From a virus (Duplodnaviria > Heunggongvirae > Uroviricota > Caudoviricetes), in the IMG/VR virus record IMGVR_UViG_3300046507_000526, positions 70,193 through 134,192 of that record: a stretch of 64,000 nucleotides of DNA, one strand, 5' to 3'. The notes under the pieces were generated by a model, which saw only the letters and a program-made list of their open reading frames with translations, ran no database searches and was not told the DNA's origin. How positions within the stretch are numbered: position 1 is the first letter of the stretch; each line of letters opens with the position of its first letter. Shown here piece by piece: positions 3,646 through 50,001 of this stretch. A program made the position numbers and the translations under genes.

Positions 3646-4602
3646 ATGAAACTTAATCAGCCTTTCCGTCGTCCCTCTCTCAACTCTGAAGAACGTGTTG
3701 CTTTCAATACACCGGAGCCGGTTAAGGCTGAAGTTTCAGAACCGGTTATTCCTCCGCTCGTTTCAAATAAACCGGAAATGCCTTCTCTGGTAAAAACTGA
3801 GACTTCTGAACCGGCACTTCCTAAATTGGAACGAGTGCAAAAGAAACAAGTTGAACTATCGCCCCCACAATCCGCAGCGGAAGTTAAGGCTACGGCAGAA
3901 CCTGAAACTTCAGGCGGGGTGCCGAAACTTGTGAAAGAGGAAAAGCCTGCGGTAGCATGGCCTTTCTCAACAGATGAACAAAAGGATTTGCAAGAAGAGC
4001 TTCAGACAGAAATGGCTAAGCCTGCAGTTCCTGAACTTCAACAGCCCGTTGCTATTCCGAAGCTTGAAATCACTAAGGGCAATGGCGAGGTTAAGAAGGT
4101 CGACATCCCTGCACTCGATGCTTACAACAAGATGGAAGTCGTTCATCTGTTGATAGGGCGTTCTTCAGAGGACGAAGAAATCGTTTTGCTCCAATCTTTT
4201 TCGGAGAGATTCGTCAGAACAAAAAACAAGGATGAATTCAACCAGAGTGTCTATGCTCGTATCAGCGCTCACTACCAAGCGATGTTCTCTACTCATCAGT
4301 ACGATTTGTATGAGCGTCGAGCCCATCACAGTATACAAGTTCAAACTGTTACTCCTCAGCTCGCCAACAAGGGAGTCGAGTGGGTTGCGGCTTTGGCTGA
4401 TGATGGGCTACCTGCTGGAACCGATACTCAAGCATACGCAAACTCAGAAGGTATAAGCACGGAGGATGCGTTGACTGAAATCAGAGAATATGGTCTTTTC
4501 CGAAACCCCGCATCATTCATCTACACCTGGGCTTTGGTGAAAGTGAAAATCGGGCACGACTTCGGTTCATATCGACTCTCTGAGTTGATGCCGACTCTGT
4601 AA
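3646..4602 (+). CDS. hypothetical protein with Pro/Glu/Lys-rich N-terminal half
   Basis: 318 aa ORF; low-complexity PEP/PAL repeats then globular C-terminus. Confidence 0.5.
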   Translation: MKLNQPFRRPSLNSEERVAFNTPEPVKAEVSEPVIPPLVSNKPEMPSLVKTETSEPALPKLERVQKKQVELSPPQSAAEVKATAEPETSGGVPKLVKEEKPAVAWPFSTDEQKDLQEELQTEMAKPAVPELQQPVAIPKLEITKGNGEVKKVDIPALDAYNKMEVVHLLIGRSSEDEEIVLLQSFSERFVRTKNKDEFNQSVYARISAHYQAMFSTHQYDLYERRAHHSIQVQTVTPQLANKGVEWVAALADDGLPAGTDTQAYANSEGISTEDALTEIREYGLFRNPASFIYTWALVKVKIGHDFGSYRLSELMPTL

Positions 4603-4605
4603 CCA

Positions 4606-4636
4606 AGGAGGGGCCATTCGGCTCCTTCTTTTTTTA
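4606..4636 (+). terminator. rho-independent terminator
   Basis: GGGGCC-ATTC-GGCTCC hairpin followed by TTCTTTTTTT. Confidence 0.6.
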
Positions 4637-4779
4637 GCCGATCAGAGAGGCTGAAGAGACCTACCTTAGGTTGGGTATCAATTAGGCATAGCAGCCTGTC
4701 CTAGGCCTTGTACGCAAGCCTCAGATACATTCGTGTCCGATCTTTGTACTTCTTTTTCGGACATCAAATGAGATGTTTT

Positions 4780-5330
4780 AAAAACTGGACAGATGGCCAT
4801 TTCAAAATCTCCTTTAAAATCAACAACTTACGACAATGTGTCCAATTTGTCCAAAATCAAAAATAAAACTGGACAGCCGCAAACCCATACTGGGCTTGGC
4901 TTTCAGCGGATTTGTCCAATTGTCCTGGTTTTTTTTCAAACCATACCTCACTTTCTAATAGAGAAATAAAAAACAAAAAAAGAAAAACTTAGGGTTCACC
5001 CTAACAGTCACAGAATCCGGGGGTCTTATATATATATAATATTTGAACTTTTTAAAAAATATATTTATATATAAGAGAGGTATTTCTCTTTTTGCAAAAA
5101 GATGTGTGTTGCTATTTATAAGTGAGGTATGGTTTGAAAAAAAACCAGGACAATTGGACAAATCGTCTGAAAGCTAAGCTGGGCCTACGTTTGCGGCTGT
5201 CCAATTTCTAAATTTAAAAAGGACGTTTTTGGACACGTCTCATAAGCTCTTGATTTTAAAGAGAAATCTCAAAATAAAACTGGACACCATTTTTGGACAC
5301 ATTCAAAGTCATCATTCCTAGGGGTTTTTG
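4780..5330. repeat. iteron-rich palindromic element, copy 1 (TGGACA/TGTCCA iterons, about 95-bp inverted repeat arms 4869-4952 and 5121-5210, AT-rich core 4953-5120)
   Basis: about 10 TGGACA-type iterons; right arm is reverse complement of left arm (about 90 percent); core TATATATATAAT...TATATATAAG; copy 2 at 63741-63990. Confidence 0.6.
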
Positions 5331-5337
5331 GTATAAG
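5329..5337 (+). promoter_or_regulatory. TGGTATAAG promoter motif
   Basis: conserved extended -10-like box. Confidence 0.4.
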
Positions 5338-5434
5338 TAAAGTATGGAGAAGAACTGTTGATTTCGCCTTCAGCAATTCCTCTCAACCTTGAATAGGGTC
5401 TACGGTTTCGTAGGGCCTTGACAAGTTGGTCTTT

Positions 5435-5472
5435 TACCGGCAGCTGATCCCCAAGTCTTCAGCCGGTTTTTT
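5435..5472 (+). terminator. terminator/attenuator-like hairpin
   Basis: CCGGCAGCTG...CAGCCGG followed by T8, directly upstream of thg1-like start. Confidence 0.4.
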
Positions 5473-6353: not shown

Positions 6354-6424
6354 CGTACTACCAGGAAGATAGCCTGGTGGTACAATGTATTTTTAAGAGA
6401 GGTAACACAGTGGTAAAACTCGCC

Positions 6425-7666
6425 GACATGGCGCTAAACGACTTGTATGCAAAACCAAAGATTACAAGTACAGTAGAGGCGGTTATTCATGTTAAAGAAG
6501 ATTTCAGCAAAATCAGCCCGACGTATTGTGAACGGGTCTGTAAGCTGAAGTGCAAGAATTATGAATCTGTTTCTTTAGCCAAGAAAGAACTGGATATTCT
6601 GATTATTCAGGATCACGCTGCACCAGATGGTAAGTGGGATAAATACTCCGGTCAACAAGAGCAGCAAATGCAGGACATTATCTTCCATCTCTGTAAAGCA
6701 GCAGGGTTCGGAGATCTGAAGTATAAGCTGGTAGATTTATTGAAGTGCCCGCCAACGGAAGAGGACTTTCCTAAGGGTAAAGCGCCGACGGCAACGACGT
6801 TGATGAAATGTCGACCGTACTTGTGGCAGGAAATTGAATCGTGTAAACCTAAGATTATTATCAGCTTGGCCACTGCAGTGACTAAAGCGTTGGGTTACAA
6901 GAAACATAGTAATTCTGGGAACCGTGGTGAGTACGTGGATAATGTCGTAATCACGATCCATCCTAGGGCGTTGACAATGATTCGTCAGAACGCCTCAGGA
7001 GCATTTTGGGGTCAAGAGTTGTATGGGGTTATCCTTCGGGACTTCAAGAAGGCAGCAGCGATGGCCAGGGGTGAGTTGAATCCTCCGAAGCTGGAAGATG
7101 CGATCAAGTTTTACAAAGAGAATCGTATTCGAGTAGCAGAGTCGATTGAAGACGTAAAAGAGTACATGGGTATTCTTAATTCGTTACCAATATCTGCGAT
7201 TATTAGCGTAGATACTGAAACCGTAGGATTCGATGGGCTAGCCCCAGATGCAAAGCTATTGTGTATTCAATTTGGATATAGAGATCCGGTTGATAAAGTA
7301 GTTAAAGCATTGGTCGTTCCGTTGTGGCATAGAGAGAACACGTTCTATAGCGGTGATGAAGCTTGGACGTTGGTGAAACCGTTCTTAGAAGGTGAACAGC
7401 CGAAAGTTTTGCATAATGGCAAGTTCGATATACTGTATATATGGTTTACTACGAAGGTTAGAGTTAGAAATGTAGCGTTTGATACTCTTCTTCTTTTACA
7501 TAGTTTGGATTCAGGCGCACAAGGTACGTATTCGCTTAAAACTGCAGTTTGGGACATTGTTCCCTGGTCTGGGCTCGGAGGCTATGAAGATCTACTTCCC
7601 AAATTGACCAAAGCAAAAGATCTTGAAGAAGAAACAGAAGAAGAAGGTGAAGTAGATGGCGATTAA
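6425..7666 (+). CDS. DNA polymerase I-like, N-terminal polypeptide: UDG-like domain plus 3'-5' exonuclease Exo I and Exo II motifs
   Basis: IISVDTETVGFDG (Exo I) and KVLHNGKFDILYI (Exo II); N-terminal region with degenerate family-4 UDG-like layout (ITIHPRAL); ORF track begins at GTG 6377, first ATG 6425; acidic tail EEETEEEGEVDGD. Confidence 0.7.
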   Translation, partial: DMALNDLYAKPKITSTVEAVIHVKEDFSKISPTYCERVCKLKCKNYESVSLAKKELDILIIQDHAAPDGKWDKYSGQQEQQMQDIIFHLCKAAGFGDLKYKLVDLLKCPPTEEDFPKGKAPTATTLMKCRPYLWQEIESCKPKIIISLATAVTKALGYKKHSNSGNRGEYVDNVVITIHPRALTMIRQNASGAFWGQELYGVILRDFKKAAAMARGELNPPKLEDAIKFYKENRIRVAESIEDVKEYMGILNSLPISAIISVDTETVGFDGLAPDAKLLCIQFGYRDPVDKVVKALVVPLWHRENTFYSGDEAWTLVKPFLEGEQPKVLHNGKFDILYIWFTTKVRVRNVAFDTLLLLHSLDSGAQGTYSLKTAVWDIVPWSGLGGYEDLLPKLTKAKDLEEETEEEGEVDGD

Positions 7667-9362
7667 GCGTATAGCACCCAAGGCTAAGAAGCCAATTGCA
7701 GAAATGCTGGAAGAGAAGATTGTCGAAAAAGCAGTAGAAGCACCTGCAGAAAAGAAAGCGCGGAAGAAGAAAGAGCCAACCGTAGTTGAAGTGCCTGAAG
7801 AAAAGAAGATCTATCGTACATACGAAGATTATCCGTATGCTGACCTGATGACTTATGCTGGTATCGATAATATCGTAACGTCGGAAGTTCTAACAGCACT
7901 GTGGCCCGACTTGGTAAAGCCGCAAGAACTGTTGATGCCACAGAAGAACGGCCAGCCCAAGAAGATCAAGGCTCCTGGAATTATCAAGTCCGTTGTCGAG
8001 ACTGAAATGCTCTGTCATGAGTTCATTATCAATCTCGAAATTAACGGAATGCTTTATGACATAGCACGTAACCGTGCAATTTCGAAGCAGATGGTTGAGG
8101 AAGTAGCAGAGTTCGAAGAGAAGATCTTCAGCGCTATTGGGAAACGAATCAATCTTGATTCCGGTACAGAAGTAGGCAAGTACCTGTATGAAGAACTAGG
8201 GCTTGAGGCTCCATTCAAGACAAAGTCTGGTGACGATGCAACTGACGGTGCGGCACTTTTGACGCTGGCGGGTTTGAATCCGTTGGCTAACCAGTACACA
8301 GCTCCGGATCCAGCCAAGCAGTTTTTGGCGGATATGGCTAAGAGAAAGGATATTAATAGTGTCCATAACACCTTCATTAAAACGTATGTTGAAGACTTTG
8401 TTCGCTCGGATGGTCGCATTCATCCTAGCTACAACATGTTTGGTACTAGCAGCTTTCGGATCACTGGGGATAGCCCAAATCTTACACAGCTACCTAGGCC
8501 TAAGCACGGGTACAACGTACGTGAATGTTATACTGTGGCTGACGGGAATGTATTTATTGCATTTGACTTTAGCTCAGCGGAAGTAAAAATCCTCGGTGCA
8601 ATCTGCCGAGATAAGAACATGCTGAAGGCGATTTCTGAAGGTCTTGATTTTCACTCGTTCTCGGCAAGTGCAATGATGGGTGTGCCCTATGAAGAGTACA
8701 TTCATATTCTTGAAGACGATTCACATCCGCTGAAGAAAGAGTACAAGCGTATGCGACAAGTTGCAAAAGTTCTGACGTTCTCAATCCTTTATGGTTCGTC
8801 AGTAAACGGTATTGCAATGCAGTTGCAGTTAGAGAAGAGCGAAGCGGAACGTCTGGTTAATATGTACTTCAATGCGTATCCTGGTGTTAAGGACTATATT
8901 GATGAGTCGCATCAGATGGCACTGTTGAACCAGAAAGTATGGACACCTTTTGGTCAGTACAAGCACGAGTATGTTGCTCAGCCTGCGTTCAAGCGTACCG
9001 CAGCATATAACGCATCACTGCGCAATGCACAGAACGTTCGTATTCAAAGTGCAACGTCTACGCTGGGTCTGGTAACGTTTGCACATCTGGATCAGGCAAT
9101 TCAGAAGATTGACCCACGCTGCAAGAGTATCTGTACCGTGTATGACTCGGTGGAGTTCGAAGTGCCGCAGGAACGTGCAGCAGAAGTGATTGAAACAGCG
9201 TTCTATTACATGAACGAATGGCCTGTCCAACATTTCGATTGGCTTGATCTCCCGATTGGTGTTGAAGGTGAAATTGGATTTAACTGGGGTCAGGTGAAAG
9301 AAGTTAAGCCTGGCATTACGCAAGAAGCGGTAAATGAGATGTTAATGAAGATGAGAGCGTAA
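7656..9362 (+). CDS. DNA polymerase I-like, C-terminal polypeptide: Exo III motif plus family A polymerase domain
   Basis: YAGIDNIVT (Exo III, Y-x3-D); motif A FDFSSAEVKILG, motif B RMRQVAKVLTFSILYG, motif C TVYDSVEFEV; ATG overlaps upstream stop by 11 nt. Confidence 0.85.
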   Translation: MAIKRIAPKAKKPIAEMLEEKIVEKAVEAPAEKKARKKKEPTVVEVPEEKKIYRTYEDYPYADLMTYAGIDNIVTSEVLTALWPDLVKPQELLMPQKNGQPKKIKAPGIIKSVVETEMLCHEFIINLEINGMLYDIARNRAISKQMVEEVAEFEEKIFSAIGKRINLDSGTEVGKYLYEELGLEAPFKTKSGDDATDGAALLTLAGLNPLANQYTAPDPAKQFLADMAKRKDINSVHNTFIKTYVEDFVRSDGRIHPSYNMFGTSSFRITGDSPNLTQLPRPKHGYNVRECYTVADGNVFIAFDFSSAEVKILGAICRDKNMLKAISEGLDFHSFSASAMMGVPYEEYIHILEDDSHPLKKEYKRMRQVAKVLTFSILYGSSVNGIAMQLQLEKSEAERLVNMYFNAYPGVKDYIDESHQMALLNQKVWTPFGQYKHEYVAQPAFKRTAAYNASLRNAQNVRIQSATSTLGLVTFAHLDQAIQKIDPRCKSICTVYDSVEFEVPQERAAEVIETAFYYMNEWPVQHFDWLDLPIGVEGEIGFNWGQVKEVKPGITQEAVNEMLMKMRA

Positions 9363-13782: not shown

Positions 13783-16203
13783 ATGAAAATTCAAACCAAG
13801 CTTCACACCGTGTTTATCCTGGTTGGCCCTTCTATGTGCGGCAAGTCGACGTTTTCCCTTGAGTTGCAGCACGCTCTAGGAGAACAGATGCGTAAAGCTG
13901 GACTGGGCGGTTCGTGTTCGATTCCCGTCATCAGTTCCGATGCGGAGCGAGAAAGTCTTTACGGCTACAAGAATCTCCATCGTTACGCACCTTTGATGAT
14001 GGAAGCCTCAGCTTCGGCCTTCGAAGTCCTTATGGCCAGGTACAAGGCAGCGATCTCGTTCCCGATCAATAGCGAATTCGTGATCATCGACACGACTGGC
14101 ATGAACGATACGTTCCGCAAGCAAATTCGTGAACTGGCCGAGGAAAAGGAATATCGTACTGAGTTGGTTACTTTCGAGTACTCCAACTATCAGTATTGGT
14201 CGGAATCCAATGCAGAAGAAAAGGTCATCGTCGAGTCGAGTGCCAAGCGATTCAAGCAGAGCGTCCTCCCGAATCTGGGGCGTAAAGATCACGACGGCTG
14301 TATCCGTGTGCGTGAACGTGACAAGAATTTCTGGCGTGACCTCGAAGTTGAGATTGAAGATCTGCAAAAGTACGCAGCTACTCAGTTGTATCTCAATAAG
14401 GACATGCAGATCAATATCATCGGAGATGTGCACGAACATGTCGAAGCGCTGGAAGAACTTCTTGTCAAACTCCCTGCTGGGAGCATCAACGTTATGGTGG
14501 GAGATTACATTGATAAGGGCAATGACACAGCAAATGCCATTGCTGCAGCTCGTAGGTTCCACGCTTCTGGTGGTATTATTGTTCACGGCAATCACGAGTC
14601 GTATGCTGTGAAACGTATCAAGGGAGAAATTAAGAACCCTGATCTGGAAATGGAAGCAAAGTACATGACTTCACTCAATGTACTGCTGAAAGATCCTGCG
14701 CTTGCAGCTGAGCTTGTAGATCTCTTCGACCTTTGTTCTGTACCTTTCCTCAAAATTCACGGTCATAACGTTCGTACCCTTTACGTTACCCATGCTCCTT
14801 GCGAGCAGAAATATCTGGGTAAGATGAGCCCTGCAGCACTTAAGGCTCAACGTAACCTGTACGGGGATCGTAAAGAAGACTACCGGAAGGCATATGACTT
14901 TATCTTTAAAGAAGCAGTTGGCAATTTCCCTTTGCATGTGTTTGGTCATGTTGCCCATAATGCTTCAAAGCTCGAATATCGGAACAAGATTTTTATCGAT
15001 ACCGGTGCTGTGTATGGCAATGCTCTTTCTGCTTTGTGCTATAAGGGAAACCGCTATTGGATCGAGTCTGTTAAGGCGACTGAAAAAGTAACGGTACATA
15101 AGGAACTTCAAAACTTCCTTACGCAACCTATTGCAGCTCCGGAAAAGCCCTTCAGCATCTACGACTATAAGTTGTCGCCTGATGATATGAAGTTCTTGAA
15201 GCGTACAATCGCAAACCGCGTTCAGTACATTTCCGGAACTATGGCACCAGCTCCGTCGACCAGCACTGAGATTGAAAGTCTGAAGGCTGGACTGGACTAT
15301 TTCCGTAACAAAGGCACGACGAAGGTAATTCTGGAACCGAAGTACATGGGTTCACGTTGCCAGATGTATCTGTTCCGTGGCCAACGCGAGAAATGCTTCC
15401 TGGTTTCCCGCAATGGTTTCAAGATTCGAATGAATGAAAAGCTTGACGCAATGCTTGACGCCGAGCTTGCGAAGTATGAAGCTTTGAGTCTTGATTTCTG
15501 GAATGAGTCAATGATTCTAGACGGCGAGCTTCTTCCTTGGACTACTCTCGGCGCTTCCTTGGTCGAAGAGCAATTCAAGGCGTATGAAGAGCTTGTACGT
15601 TACGAACTGGAAACTCTTGCAGGGGATGCGGAATTTGTGAAGCTTAACTTCAAGCAAAAGCCTGATTTATTAGCACGTCTGGCCGATCTGGCAACGTTCA
15701 AGAAAACCCTTGCAATCTACGGAGCAGAAGCCGATCCTTTCTATAAACCTTTTGCAATTCTGAAAATTGATAGCGAGGCCATGGGGAATAAATTTGAGGT
15801 TGCAGATTCGTTCGATACTCTCAACGAAGACGAATGTCGTGTCCTGCGTTTGGATAACGAATTCACTGACCAAACAGCGCAAGAATTCTTCGAAGCGTTG
15901 ACCGTAGATCGTAAAATGGAAGGCGTCGTCATTAAGCCTCTCGATGGTCCGGAAGATGTAGCACCGTACATGAAGGTTCGGAATGAGAATTATCTGACAC
16001 TTGTGTATGGCTACGACTATAAGAACCGTTACGAAGCTCTTTGCCGCCAGAAGAAGGTTGGTGGTAAACTACGTGTCTCCATTAAGGAGCATGATCTCGC
16101 AATGGCAATGCTTAATGTAGACAACGGCCCTGCCATGACTGAATTGATTGTGAAAATGATCTCACAACTCAATGAAGAAAAGGCTTTGGATCCTCGTCTG
16201 TAA
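13783..16203 (+). CDS. pnkp: bacterial-type polynucleotide kinase-phosphatase with C-terminal ligase-like adenylyltransferase domain (Pnkp)
   Basis: P-loop kinase VGPSMCGKST; calcineurin-like phosphoesterase GDVHEH...GDYIDKG...GNHES; C-terminal nucleotidyltransferase motif EPKYMGSRCQ; three-domain order matches bacterial Pnkp. Confidence 0.85.
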   Translation: MKIQTKLHTVFILVGPSMCGKSTFSLELQHALGEQMRKAGLGGSCSIPVISSDAERESLYGYKNLHRYAPLMMEASASAFEVLMARYKAAISFPINSEFVIIDTTGMNDTFRKQIRELAEEKEYRTELVTFEYSNYQYWSESNAEEKVIVESSAKRFKQSVLPNLGRKDHDGCIRVRERDKNFWRDLEVEIEDLQKYAATQLYLNKDMQINIIGDVHEHVEALEELLVKLPAGSINVMVGDYIDKGNDTANAIAAARRFHASGGIIVHGNHESYAVKRIKGEIKNPDLEMEAKYMTSLNVLLKDPALAAELVDLFDLCSVPFLKIHGHNVRTLYVTHAPCEQKYLGKMSPAALKAQRNLYGDRKEDYRKAYDFIFKEAVGNFPLHVFGHVAHNASKLEYRNKIFIDTGAVYGNALSALCYKGNRYWIESVKATEKVTVHKELQNFLTQPIAAPEKPFSIYDYKLSPDDMKFLKRTIANRVQYISGTMAPAPSTSTEIESLKAGLDYFRNKGTTKVILEPKYMGSRCQMYLFRGQREKCFLVSRNGFKIRMNEKLDAMLDAELAKYEALSLDFWNESMILDGELLPWTTLGASLVEEQFKAYEELVRYELETLAGDAEFVKLNFKQKPDLLARLADLATFKKTLAIYGAEADPFYKPFAILKIDSEAMGNKFEVADSFDTLNEDECRVLRLDNEFTDQTAQEFFEALTVDRKMEGVVIKPLDGPEDVAPYMKVRNENYLTLVYGYDYKNRYEALCRQKKVGGKLRVSIKEHDLAMAMLNVDNGPAMTELIVKMISQLNEEKALDPRL

Positions 16204-30840: not shown

Positions 30841-30916
30841 GGGAACATAGCTCAATTGGCAGAGTAGCGGTCTTCAAAACCGTTGGTTTCGGGTTCGAGT
30901 CCCGATGTTCTCACCA
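30841..30916 (+). tRNA. tRNA with anticodon UCA (UGA reader; opal-suppressor / tRNA-Trp-like), CCA encoded
   Basis: canonical 76-nt cloverleaf: acceptor GGGAACA/TGTTCTC, D-arm GCTCAATTGGCAGAGT, anticodon stem GCGGT/ACCGT, loop CTTCAAA, T-arm TCGGGTTCGAGTCCCGA; resembles tRNA-Trp with C34 to U. Confidence 0.75.
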
Positions 30917-37353: not shown

Positions 37354-37699
37354 AGCTAACGGAGTTATTCTTCGATACGCTTTGCTTAAGACTGTGAACC
37401 GCCTGACTTTCGATATTATCGAACAGGCGGAATTCACACGGTATAGAGGTGAGGACGATGGTCCTTACTTCAAGTTTGTCGCATCAAATGGCTATGAGGT
37501 GTATTCCCGTAGCCGTATGGACATTCAGACGGAACGTCTTTGGCTTCTGGGAGCTAAAGAGCAGGACCGCTCTGGAAGCATGGTATTTTCCTCGAATGAT
37601 AAAAGAGATAAAGCTTATTCTGAATTCAAGACTGCCTTGAACGAATGGGCAGAAACGAATTTTGGAGTTGCACAAGATGTCAATGACGCTCGATCCTAA
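37328..37699 (+). CDS. hypothetical protein
   Basis: 123 aa ORF. Confidence 0.45.
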
Positions 37700-38339
37700 A
37701 GATATCCGCCTGGACTCGTTTGGTCATCAGCATGGTGGTCAAAGAGTAGGTATGGATACAGGTGTTAGGGCTACCCACCTACCTAGTGGGATTTCAACTG
37801 AATGTAACGATGACCGCAGCCAGCATCGTAATAAAGAAAAAGCCTTAAAAGAATTGGCTGAGTTGGTTAATGTTTGGAGCGAAAGTCTAGTTCGGAAGGC
37901 TACTCTTTTTGAAGTTTTGGATTACGGTTGGGCCTGCGGGTTTGATATTAAGCAAACTCTAGATGATTGTAAAGATGCCGGATACGAGGTACCAGAGGGA
38001 TTTGTAAAACGATATTGGACTGGCTGGGACCAGCAAGCCGAAAAAGACCTGCAACACAGCGATGATGTAGCAGTCGACAAGTTCGCAGCGATGATGAAAG
38101 TGAAGCTTGCCAAGTCTCGTGAGAAGGGTCGTGGTGGCTGGGACGATCCGGAACAATGCAGCGTTGAATTCTTGGCCAAGCTTCTAGTCGAGCATGTGGC
38201 TAAAGGGGATCCCGTGGACGTTGCAAATCTAGCTATGATGTTGACACTGAGAGAAGCTACCTCTGAATCGCTTAAAAACGCATTTGCCGATGAAGCTATG
38301 AAGATGATGGAGCGAGAAGGCTGGTCTTCAGGTGGCTAA
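37677..38339 (+). CDS. GGQ-motif peptidyl-tRNA hydrolase domain protein (ArfB/ICT1/RF-1 domain-like) with extra C-terminal domain
   Basis: [45 protein letters not shown] matches release-factor GGQ catalytic domain; no codon-recognition domains. Confidence 0.75.
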
Positions 38340-44914: not shown

Positions 44915-46309
44915 ATGAAAATCATCATCCAATCTCTAGCGAATGCGGAAGACAATGCAATGCTTCAAGCACTGTACTCCCGCAGCGCTGAATCTGTCAC
45001 GACCCATCTTGAAAGAGTTGAGAAAGCTGGGTCTGGCAAATTTATGGCCCAGTATTATCTGGGATATGGCCATGCGTCAATTGGCGATTGTGGAAGCGAC
45101 ACCGTCTTTATCGAAGGTGTTTCTATGCTTGCCGCAAAGGCCATCGAGGATAACCCTCTCTTTGTCGGTCAGGAATGCAGCTCCAGATATATCGACTTTA
45201 GCACGCAGGAATTTTATGTGCCCTGTGCTAAAGTGGAGATCATGGAGGAAATCCATCAACTGTACAACAAATTCCGGGCGTTCTACACTGCAAGCCTAGA
45301 GCCTTTGAAGGCTGCACTCCGTGAAAGATTTCCTAAGAAAGAAGATGACAAAGATACGGTTTACGAAAAAGCTATTGCTGCTAGGGCTTTTGATATCCTT
45401 CGTGGCTTTCTCCCTGCAGGTGCTACTACCAATGTGGCTTGGTCATTCCGACTTAGCAACGCTGATGAGCATCTCCGGTGGATGATGCATCACCCGTTGG
45501 AAGAGGTAAAACGAATCGGGGCATTGGTATATGAAATGCTTCATAAGAAATACCCTAATTCATTTCATAAAGACTACGCCGATGTTGTCCATGCGATGAA
45601 AGAACTGGACGATGGCGACGGGTTGCTTCTGGAAATAGAAGGTGACGCTACCTTCACGTATCTTTCTCAGATGGAGCATTTCTATACAGAGTTTAAAGAC
45701 TCTGGAAAGTTCAGTAAAATCGCCAGCGCCGAAGACGTATACACAGAAGTTGAATTCGACGAAGATTTGTCTATTCACCTCAAGTATTTCCAAGGGTATA
45801 AGGCTCGTCAGCGTAAAACTCGGCTTCCGAAGCATTCGCTTGTTCGCATTCAGAGCGTATATGTGTCTACGATGATTGACTTCGGCTCGTTCCGGGATAT
45901 TCAAAGGCACCGTAATGGATACTGCAACATGCCCATGTTGACATGTGACTACGGTATCCACCCGTGGTACTACGAAAATCTCACGGAAGAATTGCGGAAA
46001 GACGCATACATACTTCTGAATGAAATCGAGAAGGTGTATACTGAACTTCGCAAGACTGAAGAAGTTGTTCAGCTTCAGTACATTCTTCCTATGGGTTTCA
46101 TCGTACCAACGATGCTCAAGTATGATGTAGGTCAAGCTGTGTACGTGGCTGAGCTTCGTTCCGGAAAGACTGTCCATGCTACTCTACGTCCTGTTGCACA
46201 GAAACTTGCTGCTTCTCTTGAGGAACTCGGTATTCCGGTTTTTTATGACAAAGAGGAAAGTGACTGGACTGTGAAGCGCGGCGAGCAGGATATCGTTTCG
46301 AAGAGTTAA
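44915..46309 (+). CDS. possible tandem-domain ThyX-like (flavin-dependent thymidylate synthase fold) protein
   Basis: QECSSRYIDFSTQEFYVP resembles ThyX NELSGRYSKLSYEFYIP; second half has FRDIQRHRNGY (RHR) and ELRSGKTVHATLRPVAQ resembling ThyX LR.d.hAQwEI; assignment tentative. Confidence 0.4.
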   Translation: MKIIIQSLANAEDNAMLQALYSRSAESVTTHLERVEKAGSGKFMAQYYLGYGHASIGDCGSDTVFIEGVSMLAAKAIEDNPLFVGQECSSRYIDFSTQEFYVPCAKVEIMEEIHQLYNKFRAFYTASLEPLKAALRERFPKKEDDKDTVYEKAIAARAFDILRGFLPAGATTNVAWSFRLSNADEHLRWMMHHPLEEVKRIGALVYEMLHKKYPNSFHKDYADVVHAMKELDDGDGLLLEIEGDATFTYLSQMEHFYTEFKDSGKFSKIASAEDVYTEVEFDEDLSIHLKYFQGYKARQRKTRLPKHSLVRIQSVYVSTMIDFGSFRDIQRHRNGYCNMPMLTCDYGIHPWYYENLTEELRKDAYILLNEIEKVYTELRKTEEVVQLQYILPMGFIVPTMLKYDVGQAVYVAELRSGKTVHATLRPVAQKLAASLEELGIPVFYDKEESDWTVKRGEQDIVSKS

Positions 46310-46325
46310 ACAAACGTAGCAATTG

Positions 46326-46334
46326 TGGTATAAG
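46326..46334 (+). promoter_or_regulatory. TGGTATAAG promoter motif
   Basis: conserved box. Confidence 0.4.
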
Positions 46335-46390
46335 CAAGGTGTCGAGGGATAATATCTCGGCACCTTTTTTCTTTAGTCAGGAGATTTAAA

Positions 46391-46873
46391 ATGCAAGAAC
46401 TTGAAAACGGCCGCTTTACCATTATCCCTATCGAACTTCTCAGCCTTATTGTTGAAAAGACAGAAAATGGTTTGAAGCACATCGGAGCACCTGAAGATAT
46501 CTCGGTAGAAGATACGCTGAACGAAGTCCGGATTGCCATTAATTTTCAGATTCAGGATCAACGATCCAAAAGTGAAACTGTGAATCGCCTCTGGAAACGC
46601 TTTCAGGCTACGAAAGAATTCATGGATCCTCGTGAACTTCAGATGAATGAAGCTATGTGGGCTGGTTTCGACCATAAGAAGTACGAAGGCGATAAGACCA
46701 GAATTATTTCCGGACTTGAGAAGAGCATGTTCGAACTTACTGAAGTAATGCTGGATAACAATGTTCCTATCCATGCGCTTGATAGTATTGACGGCGAAGA
46801 CCCCGTAGAGATTCGTACGACTAGTCTTGAGGAAATCAAGAATATGTTTGACGGATTTGGCAAGAAAGAGTAA
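46391..46873 (+). CDS. hypothetical protein
   Basis: 160 aa with CAGGAG RBS. Confidence 0.5.
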   Translation: MQELENGRFTIIPIELLSLIVEKTENGLKHIGAPEDISVEDTLNEVRIAINFQIQDQRSKSETVNRLWKRFQATKEFMDPRELQMNEAMWAGFDHKKYEGDKTRIISGLEKSMFELTEVMLDNNVPIHALDSIDGEDPVEIRTTSLEEIKNMFDGFGKKE

Positions 46874-46884
46874 TATAGGTTTGT

Positions 46885-46915
46885 GCGGTAACAAAGAGTT
46901 GCCGCTTTCTTTTAC
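46885..46915 (+). terminator. rho-independent terminator
   Basis: GCGGTAACAAAGAGTTGCCGC plus T-run. Confidence 0.55.
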
Positions 46916-46931
46916 ATTCGAGAGGCTCGAA

Positions 46932-48014
46932 ATGTCACTAAAAACTGAAATATCCAAGTTGTACAAAGACGTTCCGTCGGAACGCGCAGAACCAGAATAT
47001 GAACTCGCAGTCGTGATTGGTAGATTTGAACCTCCGCACGTAGGCCATGGCATTCTTTTCAACAAAGCGTCCATGGTAGCAAAGAAGGTTCTTATCCTGA
47101 TCGGATCTTCCTATTCTCCACGTACGATAAAGAATCCATTTACGTTTGAAGAACGGGCTCAGATGATTTCTGAATCTCTACCTTCGGAGAACATCATTTG
47201 TATGCCTTTGGTGGATAACCTTTATTCGGATGACGATTGGGTTAACTCCGTCCAACGTAGCATTGCAGAATGTGTTCCTGCAGGTTCGAAGGTAGCCATC
47301 GTTGGCAACAAGAAAGACGAAAGTTCTTACTATCTCGATCTCTTTCCGCAATACAACTACGTAGCAGTGGATGAAGTGAAGCTCGGTTTCGATGCTACGA
47401 CTGTTCGTGAAGTTCTTTTTGAAAAGCCTGGTCTTGTAGATCTGCTTAAGAGCGTAGTGCCTGCTAATGTATTCGAATTCTTCAAAGAGTTCATGAAGAC
47501 GAGTGAGTATGTACGACTTCAGAAAGAGTGCTTCATGATCCGGAAATACAAAGAGGCGTGGTCAGTAGCTCCGTATGCACCTACGTTCGTAACAGTAGAT
47601 GCTGTTGTAAAGAAATCCGGACACATCTACCTAGTCAAACGTAAACATGCTCCGGGTCAAGGGCTTTGGGCACTCCCAGGGGGATTCGTAGAACCAAATG
47701 AAAGACTTAAAACTGCAGCGTTTCGTGAACTCATGGAAGAGACCAACATTGACCTTCCTCCTGGTCTGTTGCTTGGTTCTATGGGCGAAGGCGTTGTGTT
47801 TGATCATCCTGGGCGTAGCCTTCGTGGGCGCACTTTTTCGCATGCTTTCCTTTTTGACCTCGATAAGGCAGACAAGAAACCAGGCTTGCCGAAAGTGAAG
47901 GCAGCAGATGATGCATCGGACTGCAAGCCTTTCACGTATGATGAAATTCTGAGCATGCCCGAGCAGATTTTCGAAGATCACTTGTCCATCATCCGTAAGC
48001 TGGTGGGTATTTAA
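46932..48014 (+). CDS. natV: bifunctional NMN adenylyltransferase / Nudix hydrolase (NadM-Nudix, NatV-like)
   Basis: VIGRFEPPHVGH nucleotidyltransferase (H/T)xGH motif; C-terminal Nudix box LPGGFVEPNERLKTAAFRELMEETNI. Confidence 0.8.
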   Translation: MSLKTEISKLYKDVPSERAEPEYELAVVIGRFEPPHVGHGILFNKASMVAKKVLILIGSSYSPRTIKNPFTFEERAQMISESLPSENIICMPLVDNLYSDDDWVNSVQRSIAECVPAGSKVAIVGNKKDESSYYLDLFPQYNYVAVDEVKLGFDATTVREVLFEKPGLVDLLKSVVPANVFEFFKEFMKTSEYVRLQKECFMIRKYKEAWSVAPYAPTFVTVDAVVKKSGHIYLVKRKHAPGQGLWALPGGFVEPNERLKTAAFRELMEETNIDLPPGLLLGSMGEGVVFDHPGRSLRGRTFSHAFLFDLDKADKKPGLPKVKAADDASDCKPFTYDEILSMPEQIFEDHLSIIRKLVGI

Positions 48015-48568
48015 TGGGTTCAAAACCTTCTATTGGCGGTGGACAGGTTTTTAACTATCTGACTGTAGAAGGTTATGATAAGAAAACTAAAAGATATGTT
48101 TGCAATTGTATATGCGGCAATAAGACATTGGTAAGTAGTTTTAGTCTAAAGTCTGGAAAGTCTAAATCATGCGGTTGCGCAAGGGCTGAACTTGTATCTA
48201 AGTTGGTATATAAACCAAATTTTGAAGCTGCAAAAAACAAAGTTGTAGATCAATATAAGAGAGATGCGGTTAGACGAAACATAGAATTTTGCTTAACCAA
48301 GTCTGAAGTGGTTGAACTTATATCTAGGCCGTGTAAGTACTGCGGAACTGAAAATTCAAATAAAGTACTACCTCCTAAACCATATAAGATAGTTTCAAAT
48401 GAGCCTTTCAAATATAACGGAATAGATAGGGTGGATAATAATCTGGGGTATATACCGGATAACTGTGTGCCATGCTGTCGTATTTGCAATAGAGCTAAGA
48501 ATAATCTATCTGAAAAAGAATGGCTTGATTGGATAGATAAATTGTGTAAATTTAACTCAAAGTCTTAA
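48014..48568 (+). CDS. HNH endonuclease (homing endonuclease inserted between natV and nadV)
   Basis: GIDRVDNNLGYIPDNCVPCCRICNRAKNN HNH-like; AT-rich codon usage; TAATG overlap with natV stop. Confidence 0.65.
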   Translation: MGSKPSIGGGQVFNYLTVEGYDKKTKRYVCNCICGNKTLVSSFSLKSGKSKSCGCARAELVSKLVYKPNFEAAKNKVVDQYKRDAVRRNIEFCLTKSEVVELISRPCKYCGTENSNKVLPPKPYKIVSNEPFKYNGIDRVDNNLGYIPDNCVPCCRICNRAKNNLSEKEWLDWIDKLCKFNSKS

Positions 48569-48609
48569 GAATAGACCTTAAGCATTTTAATTAACGAGGC
48601 GTTAATATC

Positions 48610-50001
48610 ATGAAAGCAAATAAAATCCTTATCGGGGATAGTTACAAATATTCTCATGCCCCTCAGTACCCCCTAGGTACAGTAGGCATGCAGTCGTACG
48701 TAGAAGCTCGGAAAAACAACAGTGGATTCCCGATTGATAAAGTTTCATTTTTCGGACTGCAGGCTTTTATTAAAGAATATTTGCTAGACCCAATCACTCG
48801 GGATGACCTCAAAGAAGCGGAAGAAGTAACAAGGGCACAGGGAATTCCTTTTAATAAACAGGGATTTCAAGATATCATCGAAAAACATGATGGATATTAC
48901 CCTGCCGTTATCAGTGCGGTACCTGAAGGTAGTCAAGTAGAAATCGGGAACGTGCTGCTCACTGCGGAGTCTACTGATAGCTTGCTTCCTTGGGTAGAAA
49001 GCTTTCTAGAAACCCCTTTGCTTCAAGCAGCTTGGTATGGAACTACCGTTGCTACGATTTCACGTCATTGTAAAGAAGTGATTTTTGAGTTTCTAAAAGA
49101 AACCAGTGATGTGCCTATCAACGAGATTCCCTGGAAATTAGCCGATTTTGGATACCGTGGAAATAGTTCTCAAGAAAGTGCGGCTATTGCAGGGGCGGCG
49201 CATTTGACTAACTTTCTCGGGACCGACACTATCAATGCAATGCTGTTTGCTCGCAGGTACTACGGCGCTTCGCTTGAGCATTTAGGGTATAGCGTCCCTG
49301 CCAGCGAACACTCCACTACTACTAGTTGGGGCAAAGATGGGGAACGTGATTTTTACAGTCACGCCATTAAAACTTATGCAGGGAAATACCCGATTGTCAG
49401 TCTAGTAGCGGACTCATATGATATCGATAACTCTATTCAGAATATTTTTGGTAAAGACCTGAAAGAACAGATCGTAAACTGCGGATCTACCGTAGTTATT
49501 CGATTGGACAGCGGAGAACCTGTGGAAGGAGTTACCAAGGCACTTGGATATCTTGACGCAGCATTCGGATCAGTTCCAAATAGTAGGGGGTTTAAAGTCC
49601 TCAAAAACGTACGTGTACTTCAAGGAGACGGCGTAAATCCTACCTCTATTAAGAGAATTCTTACGGCTATGAAGTTGCAAGGCTTTAGCGCGGAAAATAT
49701 CGTGTTCGGTATGGGGGGTGGGTTACATTCCGCGTGGGATAGAGACACTTTTAGTTTTGCAATGAAGTGTTCCGCTATCAACGTAGAGGGTCAGTGGAGA
49801 GATGTGTATAAAGACCCTAAAGCTGGCGGTAAGACAAGTAAGCGGGGCAGACTTGCGCTTATTGAAGACGATGGTAAACTGGTGACCATCCGAGAAGATG
49901 CTTTGATGGGTCGAACTAGTCTTCTGGAACCTGTGTACGCCAATGGCGTTCTTATCCGTGACCAGTCGTTTAACGATGTTCGCAGGCTGGCTGCTATCTA
50001 A
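48610..50001 (+). CDS. nadV: nicotinamide phosphoribosyltransferase (Nampt/NadV)
   Basis: LIGDSYKYSH and ADFGYRGNSSQESAAIAGAAH match Nampt motifs. Confidence 0.85.
   Translation: MKANKILIGDSYKYSHAPQYPLGTVGMQSYVEARKNNSGFPIDKVSFFGLQAFIKEYLLDPITRDDLKEAEEVTRAQGIPFNKQGFQDIIEKHDGYYPAVISAVPEGSQVEIGNVLLTAESTDSLLPWVESFLETPLLQAAWYGTTVATISRHCKEVIFEFLKETSDVPINEIPWKLADFGYRGNSSQESAAIAGAAHLTNFLGTDTINAMLFARRYYGASLEHLGYSVPASEHSTTTSWGKDGERDFYSHAIKTYAGKYPIVSLVADSYDIDNSIQNIFGKDLKEQIVNCGSTVVIRLDSGEPVEGVTKALGYLDAAFGSVPNSRGFKVLKNVRVLQGDGVNPTSIKRILTAMKLQGFSAENIVFGMGGGLHSAWDRDTFSFAMKCSAINVEGQWRDVYKDPKAGGKTSKRGRLALIEDDGKLVTIREDALMGRTSLLEPVYANGVLIRDQSFNDVRRLAAI

Follow-up and report, generated by a model that had tools for sequence, protein, structure and literature searches.

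NARP2, a recently recognized route by which phages defeat NAD+-depleting immunity, is made up of the Nampt and Nmnat enzymes of Vibrio phage KVP40 and abolishes type I Thoeris and DSR2 defense (bioRxiv 10.1101/2024.02.11.579819). The pathway is present in approximately 1.1% of phage genomes, and 94% of the phages with a homolog of the KVP40 Nampt also encode a homolog of its Nmnat (bioRxiv 10.1101/2024.02.11.579819). In this study, a NARP2-type gene pair, natV and nadV, was analyzed in a 64,000-nucleotide (nt) stretch of an uncultured phage of the Caudoviricetes (IMG/VR record IMGVR_UViG_3300046507_000526, positions 70,193 to 134,192), here called the window. The two genes are separated by an AT-rich gene, the predicted product of which resembles the restriction enzyme PacI. 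We consider it likely that the locus encodes a NARP2-type pathway, with a homing-endonuclease gene inserted between natV and nadV. The locus extends NARP2 to a divergent, uncultured, tRNA-rich phage group.

PacI belongs to the His-Me finger nucleases. It lacks the catalytic His; an omega-loop Tyr acts instead, the metal ligands are Asp and Asn, and zinc sits in Cys4 motifs, as described in two reviews and one classification paper (PMC5714182, PMC3384342, PMC4081073). In the classification of Jablonska et al. 2017, PacI belongs to group 20, for which only 88 members were listed. Phage genes of this kind are known from Skunavirus, in which 2 of the 268 HNH endonuclease genes of 89 genomes received a PacI-like classification from HHpred and share a single, fixed insertion site (Yu et al. 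2025, PMC12724721).

natV and nadV match the two enzymes of NARP2

The module contains three consecutive genes:

46932..48014, + strand: natV, encoding a NadM-type nicotinamide mononucleotide (NMN) adenylyltransferase fused to a Nudix ADP-ribose pyrophosphatase-like domain
48014..48568, + strand: free-standing gene for a PacI-type His-Me finger ("HNH-like") endonuclease of 184 amino acids (aa), assigned from profile, fold and synteny
48610..50001, + strand: nadV, encoding a nicotinamide phosphoribosyltransferase (Nampt) of 463 aa

The translation of nadV contains the motifs GDSYKYSH (aa 9-16) and DFGYRGNSS (aa 179-187). NadV matched the Pfam families NAMPT_N (2.5e-19) and NAPRTase (2.2e-44), scored 544 bits against NCBIfam PRK09198, over the cut-off of 405, and was matched at 9.9e-143 by phrog_448, which is annotated as nicotinamide phosphoribosyltransferase. 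Full-length matches in the PDB included the bacterial Nampt 7yqo (1.7e-125) and mammalian NAMPT (1e-101). We take the active site of mammalian NAMPT to consist of Tyr18, Phe193, Arg196, Asp219, His247, Arg311, Asp313, Gly353-Asp354, Gly383-Gly384, and Arg392. In an alignment to 2gvl_A, NadV residues Y12, F180, R183, D206, H234, R298, and D300, together with GDG and GG...R, align to these positions. With every one of these residues kept, NadV is, as far as homology can tell, a bona fide Nampt, in agreement with the sequence-only reading, which had assigned this function to 48610-50001 from the two motifs.

The natV open reading frame (ORF) extends 5' to a TTG at 46827; the ATG chosen here, at 46932, corresponds to the start of the NatV proteins of relatives and is preceded by a conserved Shine-Dalgarno (SD) hairpin. 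The stretch VIGRFEPPHVGH, read from the translation, occupies aa 28-39 of NatV. It overlaps the first motif of the adenylyltransferase domain (aa ~26-200), H36-V-G-H39 (HxGH), which is followed by T156-T-V-R159 (TxxR). The Nudix domain (aa ~220-355) carries the box G251-x5-E257-x7-R265-E266-L-x-E269-E270 (REx2EE). Pfam searches matched CTP_transf_like (2.8e-9) and NUDIX (4.4e-18), in line with the earlier claim of an NMN adenylyltransferase fused to a Nudix domain at 46932-48014. Furthermore, NCBIfam PRK05379 (bifunctional NMNAT/Nudix) matched NatV over its full length at 1.3e-102, and all seven of its equivalog sub-models gave matches (E, 2.5e-41 to 1.3e-102). Full-length, collinear matches in the PDB were to 2qjo from Synechocystis (1.4e-73) and 2qjt from Francisella (1.6e-70), and the biochemically characterized NatV of KVP40 is 36% identical to NatV of the window over the full length (E=9e-56). 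The combination of N-terminal nucleotidyltransferase motifs with a C-terminal Nudix box, which defines the NadM-Nudix bifunctional enzymes, places NatV among their predicted members.

The natV gene lies 595 nt upstream of nadV on the same strand, and an Nmnat is thus present in the same phage genome. The PRPS-like family, the Adps partner that would mark NARP1/Namat, had no match among the approximately 36 ORFs scanned in the window, which covers 64 kb of a contig of at least 134 kb. By every sequence criterion tested, NadV and NatV form a NARP2 pair, and the assignment to this pathway is well supported by homology. NadV would convert nicotinamide and phosphoribosyl pyrophosphate (PRPP) to NMN, and the N-terminal domain of NatV would produce NAD+ by adenylating NMN. 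For the Nudix domain, the Synechocystis and Francisella homologs suggest cleavage of ADP-ribose to AMP and ribose-5-phosphate as the most likely reaction. Acting together, the two proteins may refill the NAD+ pool during infection, including in hosts with NAD+-destroying defenses such as Thoeris, DSR2, and similar systems.

The sequence-only reading had presented such pathways as countermeasures to Thoeris, DSR, SIR2, and SEFIR. For NARP2 this holds for type I Thoeris and DSR2, the only systems against which it was tested; the longer list of Thoeris, DSR1, DSR2, SIR2-HerA, and SEFIR belongs to NARP1 (bioRxiv 10.1101/2024.02.11.579819). NARP2 also increases NAD+ in defense-free cells, in agreement with earlier work on KVP40 (bioRxiv 10.1101/2024.02.11.579819). 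This elevation of NAD+ without any defense system speaks for a general auxiliary metabolic module that raises NAD+ in any host rather than a dedicated counter-defense, as do the neighbors of the pair, which are nucleotide-metabolism genes (the ribonucleotide reductase [RNR] genes nrdA and nrdB and the genes for a ThyX-like protein, an NT5C deoxyribonucleotidase, and DNA polymerase). We regard such a module as possible. The NARP2 genes nevertheless abolished both type I Thoeris and DSR2, and the two roles are mutually compatible.

An AT-rich gene occupies the exact junction between natV and nadV

The last A of the natV stop codon TAA (48012-48014) is the first base of the ATG of the endonuclease gene (48014-48016), giving a TAATG overlap. 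The GC content of 48014-48568 is 0.346, compared with a window mean of 0.455 (standard deviation, 0.036; z = -3.0). Only 0.35% of 555-nt segments are as GC-poor as this gene, and the minimum of the 64 kb (0.333) falls inside it. At its 3' end, the gene runs into a structured leader of nadV:

48559..48606, + strand: two-hairpin leader of nadV, with hairpin 1 at 48559-48588 and hairpin 2 at 48590-48606 (minimum free energy fold)

The stop codon of the endonuclease gene lies in the 5' arm of hairpin 1, and the inserted DNA spans approximately 48015-48555 (~540 nt). Its left boundary is directly after the natV stop codon, and its right boundary is just upstream of the conserved nadV hairpin, leaving the leader intact. 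Despite the insert, which occupies no intron or intein position, natV and nadV each retain their full length and their collinearity with homologs. The earlier description of an AT-rich gene placed exactly between the two genes was verified in its overlap, coordinates, and base composition.

When IMG/VR was searched with NatV, six relatives with a syntenic locus (L034-L039) were obtained, with the gene order ThyX-like, orfA (described below), NatV, NadV ... NT5C. In five of these (L034, L036, L037, L038, and L039) the natV-nadV spacer is 52-53 nt long and consists of the two-hairpin leader alone, intact and with no endonuclease remnant; L036 and L037 gave identical matches, and the relatives with an empty site were counted as four. 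The spacer measures 592-595 nt and holds a PacI-type gene in the window and in three further loci (L042, L045, and L046). In L035, the spacer is 736 nt long and contains a different gene at the same point, coding for a 234-aa GIY-YIG endonuclease with a NUMOD-like domain (L035 7140-7844), which also starts on the natV stop codon. Across the module, the proteins of L035 and of the empty-site locus L034 are 93-99% identical, and their DNA differs by 0-28 mismatches per 100 nt. The inserts of all five occupied loci have a GC content of 0.33-0.36, compared with 0.39-0.50 for their flanks. The junction between natV and nadV is therefore polymorphic for the presence of a nuclease gene and for the family to which that gene belongs.

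The inserted gene has the signature of a free-standing homing endonuclease

A total of 865 homologs of the endonuclease were found, and none of the best 120 of these had a precomputed Pfam domain. The endonuclease protein itself is recorded, in identical form, on a 134-kb metagenomic contig. In an exhaustive profile search, 15,739 cluster representatives scored at E<=1e-30, and the number rose to 140,646 at E<=1e-3. The closest homologs with known context (P0002, 59% identity; P0003, 49%; P0010, 48%) are all encoded at the natV-nadV junction of the further syntenic loci L042-L046, and homologs at <=~44% identity lie in unrelated phage neighborhoods. Lactococcus 936-group phages were among the tblastn matches, at 36% identity. 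In an unrelated lineage that also carries NARP2, the genes are ordered NatV-like, SLOG/YspA (111 aa), NadV. Here, locus L016 (3823-7476) alone carries an endonuclease homolog, 41.7% identical to that of the window, after the SLOG gene and directly upstream of nadV, and this homolog is missing from relatives with NadV proteins 82-86% identical (L019, L021-L026, and L029-L031). The window itself contains neither paralogs of the endonuclease nor relatives of the L035 GIY-YIG gene, and the gene is single copy. As a separate observation, a 270-aa member of the PacI-like family is encoded directly upstream of a gene for an Apyc1-like (anti-Pycsar) metallo-beta-lactamase (L053 3001-4658), a further instance of this family next to a counter-defense gene.

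Close relatives at the same site, a patchy distribution, a foreign base composition, and the exchange of one nuclease family for another at a single point together make up the signature of a free-standing homing endonuclease. These features support the assignment of the middle gene, from comparative sequence data, as a free-standing homing-endonuclease gene that behaves like the T4-type Seg/Mob genes and has a PacI-type core, with cleavage and homing presumed. The sequence-only reading of a homing-endonuclease invasion of the operon gains support from the empty sites, the alternative GIY-YIG occupant, and the close homologs confined to this site. The endonuclease gene is probably read from the natV transcript, possibly with translational coupling through the TAATG overlap. 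In a mixed infection, the enzyme would cut the natV-nadV region of related phages that lack the gene, and recombinational repair would copy the gene, together with flanking natV and nadV sequence, into the cut genome.

The gene affinities of the window are mosaic, with the best match of ThyX in L045 (69%), of NatV in L034 (71%), and of NadV in L042 (63%); the NadV proteins of L034, L036, L039, and L045 are 76-81% identical to each other. In addition, L034 and L035 diverge by 8-12% within 1 kb of the GIY-YIG insert, compared with 2.5-6.6% elsewhere, and other divergent patches exist. Both observations are compatible with recombination or co-conversion around the site, and neither is decisive. 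Sliding-window identities were likewise mosaic and showed no unambiguous tract ending at the insert. A comparison of natV 3' and nadV 5' sequences between occupied and empty genomes, made with regard to the cleavage target, revealed no consistent difference.

Several points weigh against the favored reading. NatV falls under the equivalog cut-off of every PRK05379 sub-model, at best with 343.6 versus 397 bits, and the counter-defense role rests on two defense systems, tested with the KVP40 genes in B. subtilis. The divergence between L034 and L035 near the GIY-YIG insert is only approximately twofold over a background that has divergent patches of its own. No near-identical empty-site genome was found for the window, the closest empty relative being 71% identical in NatV and 58% in NadV, so that a gain is inseparable from ancient presence and loss in relatives. 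Finally, the endonuclease copies at the natV-nadV site are only 47-57% identical to each other, like the flanking genes, a divergence that fits long residence as well as recent invasion.

This divergence in step with the flanks, along with the presence of the gene in four deeply separated relatives, favors an endonuclease gene that was ancestral to the phage group and was cleanly deleted in some relatives, in which case the window would represent no gain. We consider this unlikely. The insert lies 0.10 below its flanks in GC content in every occupied genome, a nuclease of a different family (GIY-YIG) is found at the same point in L035, members of the PacI-type family occur at unrelated sites in other phages, and at the empty sites the leader is intact and free of remnants. 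Moreover, homing-endonuclease genes are expected to go through cycles of gain and loss.

A protein recruited for a phage function, such as host-DNA degradation, exclusion of competitors, or regulation of nadV, would be in keeping with the possible translational link of the gene to natV inside a putative counter-defense operon. Marker exclusion was seen with I-HmuI-like HNH endonucleases of Skunavirus phages when these were expressed, and the free-standing endonuclease SegB was shown to amplify anti-defense genes (PMC13096335), which makes it reasonable to test the nuclease inside this operon for such an effect. However, the patchy presence of the gene among close relatives shows that it is dispensable, it occurs in a single copy in the window, and marker exclusion itself results from homing-type cleavage. 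Recruitment in place of selfish spread therefore appears quite improbable.

The middle protein is a predicted PacI-type His-Me finger nuclease

At E<=0.01, Pfam gave no match to the middle protein, and NCBIfam likewise gave nothing significant; the Pfam HNH family PF01844 reached E=0.12, with 12.9 bits against a cut-off of 21.4. Matches to nuclease families were obtained in PHROG (phrog_1035, 4.9e-17; phrog_374, HNH, 2.8e-14). The protein was identified by searching a profile of its family against the PDB and by a fold search. The best match of the family profile was PacI (3ldy, E=7.9e-8). An AlphaFold2 (AF2) model of the protein had a pLDDT of 91.7, and Foldseek with this model returned PacI as the sole significant match (3ldy_A; E=1.7e-4; probability, 1.0).

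In an alignment of 47 family sequences, eight cysteines (C32, C34, C53, C55, C107, C110, C155, and C158) and the residues D138, R139, Y146, N150, N159, and K162 are invariant. No His is conserved in this alignment, and R139 takes the position of the canonical HNH His. The cysteines form two predicted zinc sites (site 1, C32, C34, C53, and C55; site 2, C107, C110, C155, and C158), and the predicted catalytic residues are D138, Y146, and N159, accompanied by R139, N150, and K162. By residue counts in the profile alignment, D138, Y146, and N159 align with PacI D92, Y100, and N113. The correspondence of the PacI Tyr, Asp, and Asn and of its cysteines with residues of the endonuclease points to a plausibly active PacI-type His-Me finger enzyme, as judged from sequence and model, rather than a degenerate HNH protein. 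Y146 would stand in for the usual His base, D138 and N159 would hold the metal, and the two Cys4 sites would hold zinc. The earlier label of an HNH endonuclease thus stands at the level of the HNH/His-Me superfamily and needs correction within it, since the protein is of the PacI type, has no catalytic His, would use Tyr, Asp, and Asn, and scores under the Pfam HNH threshold. That the gene encodes the decaying remains of a nuclease without activity, or a protein that only binds DNA, as the missing conserved His and the insignificant Pfam HNH score might suggest, is highly improbable, as active PacI lacks the same His and uses Tyr, the Tyr, the metal-binding Asp and Asn, and the eight zinc cysteines are invariant in the 47 sequences, the ORF is full length, and the AF2 model is confidently folded.

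Many of the best-scoring proteins of the exhaustive profile search carry the N-terminal beta-hairpin/Cys4 module (approximately 60 aa, profile positions 5-63) more than once, and larger proteins (P0121-P0268) have as many as 11 copies in tandem, which suggests a modular, repeatable DNA-reading unit. A PacI site, TTAATTAA, is present at 48587, beside the gene. This was dismissed as a coincidence, as the two sites in 64 kb are close to the chance estimate (~2) and the site is missing in some relatives.

Twin hairpin leaders and the region upstream of natV

The nadV leader has a counterpart in front of natV, and a further gene, orfA, lies upstream of it:

46885..46931, + strand: two-hairpin leader of natV, with a terminator-like hairpin at 46885-46905 and an SD-in-loop hairpin at 46917-46931
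46391..46873, + strand: orfA, encoding a 160-aa protein, always between the ThyX-like gene and natV in syntenic relatives

In hairpin 2 of the nadV leader, the SD AGG is displayed in the loop, just before the AUG. The leaders of relatives consist of a stem-loop with the loop A[A/U]AGA, followed by a hairpin of 6-7 bp with GAGG in its loop before the AUG, and RNAalifold of eight loci showed compensatory double changes at 10 of the 14 pairs. In L035, the leader was replaced as a whole by a version of other sequence and the same structure. The terminator-like hairpin of the natV leader has the loop AAAGA and is followed by UUUCUUUU, a match of the terminator-like scan. This leader has a fold z of -2.7, with compensatory changes at 8 of 14 pairs across seven loci. 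The two leaders share one architecture, a stem-loop with the loop A[A/U/G]AGA, a U-rich tail, and a short SD-in-loop hairpin before the AUG. Such twin covarying leaders suggest a shared post-transcriptional control of natV and nadV. The hairpin was also considered as a genome-wide repeat (loop A[A/G/T]AGA); only two strict matches were found, and the element is therefore local.

The product of orfA had no Pfam or PHROG match. The gene is syntenic in L034-L039, L042, L045, and L046 at 23-49% identity, and it may or may not belong to the NAD+ module. Upstream of orfA, a TGGTATAAG motif lies within 46310-46390 of the window; most relatives among L034-L046 keep it at the corresponding position, with minor differences (TGATATAAG in L046). 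On its 3' side come a terminator-like hairpin that covaries among relatives (46336-46366) and then a T-run. The region looks like a phage promoter with a 5' stem-loop.

Genomic context of the window

The window comes from a part of a large uncultured phage genome that is devoted to replication and nucleotide metabolism. It encodes a primase/helicase, DNA polymerase (two ORFs), RNR subunits, and, downstream of the module, the NT5C nucleotidase. No match to the locus was found by megablast among 50,697 isolated phage records. The DNA polymerase ORFs (6377-7666 and 7656-9362) overlap by 11 nt and correspond to consecutive parts of phrog_17 (464-780 and 792-1248); the gene may be naturally split, or the two ORFs may result from a frameshift or from an error in sequencing. 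The ThyX-like protein encoded directly upstream of the module (44915-46309) is 464 aa long, approximately twice the usual length, with Pfam Thy1 matching residues 14-215 only; this length is kept in all syntenic relatives.

Twenty tRNA genes are spread over 22379-43812, one of which (30841-30916) was called tRNA-SeC with the anticodon TCA and is possibly a UGA reader or suppressor. Near the tRNA genes, the product of 37662-38339 (225 aa) contains an RF-1 (release factor) domain. An 806-aa protein encoded upstream of the tRNA genes (13783-16203) has polynucleotide kinase (PNK), phosphatase, and RNA-ligase-like matches and may serve in tRNA-repair counter-defense. The second-lowest GC content of the window (0.337) is found at 4601-5470. 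This region of approximately 870 nt has no ORF of >68 aa and is flanked by two + strand genes, upstream of the DNA polymerase; it may represent an origin, a region with regulatory function, or an insert that has decayed.

Discussion

Collectively, these results show that the observation made in the sequence-only reading was correct and is now well resolved, as both enzyme assignments and the inserted mobile endonuclease held up under testing. The locus is a clear example of known things, namely NARP2 and a homing endonuclease, and represents no new kind of system; current concepts are unchanged by it. Its value lies in the three states found at one intergenic point (empty, PacI-type, and GIY-YIG), a natural series suited to asking whether homing endonucleases move or reshuffle counter-defense genes between phages. 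The series is also suited to asking what PacI-type nucleases do in phages, as this family is abundant in metagenomes and no Pfam model was detected for it. A more far-reaching and rather unlikely possibility is that PacI-type nucleases form a very large family of free-standing phage homing endonucleases, one lineage of which homes to the 5' side of nadV and spreads, shuffles, or amplifies NARP2 genes by co-conversion or SegB-like amplification. If this is true, a selfish nuclease would be a vehicle for the flow of anti-defense genes among otherwise unrelated phages.

The window shares with KVP40 both enzyme families and their domain architecture, as the two-step nicotinamide-to-NAD+ pathway of the sequence-only reading implied. 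The gene arrangement does not carry over, since natV and nadV of KVP40 are not neighbors, with no nadV within 4 kb of natV, whereas the pair in the window is separated only by the mobile gene. The proteins of the window are distant from those of isolated phages, the best identities being 49% for NadV and 43% for NatV. NatV resembles the NadM-Nudix enzymes of Synechocystis (slr0787, 2qjo) and Francisella (2qjt/2r5w) in keeping HxGH, TxxR, and REx2EE; it differs in being phage encoded and in the replacement of the final G of the Nudix box by N272.

With PacI (3ldy/3m7k), the endonuclease shares the motif C-x2-C...G-[IV]-D-R-x-D...G-Y...N...C-x2-C-N-x-x-K, the lack of a catalytic His, the kept Tyr, Asp, and Asn, and two Cys4 zinc sites, which are predicted here. 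The two proteins are only ~22% identical, and they differ in the N-terminal region, which in the endonuclease is the beta-hairpin/Cys4 module. In addition, PacI is a bacterial restriction enzyme, whereas the protein of the window is the product of a mobile phage gene, and nothing supports TTAATTAA as its specificity. The PacI-like genes of Skunavirus, known from classification, lie in the morphogenesis module, in contrast to the position of the window gene in an NAD+ salvage operon.

The closest parallels in genetic behavior are the free-standing Seg and Mob genes of T4-like phages, such as mobE between nrdA and nrdB, and F-CphI of S-PM2. Like these, the gene described here is an intron-less intergenic nuclease gene between conserved metabolic genes, and it further resembles the T4-like genes in its patchy distribution among relatives, its foreign composition, and the alternation of nuclease families at one site. 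For the present gene, homing is presumed from these features, and the catalytic domain sets it apart, as it is of the PacI type in the window, canonical HNH in Mob, GIY-YIG in Seg, and of the Endo VII type in F-CphI.

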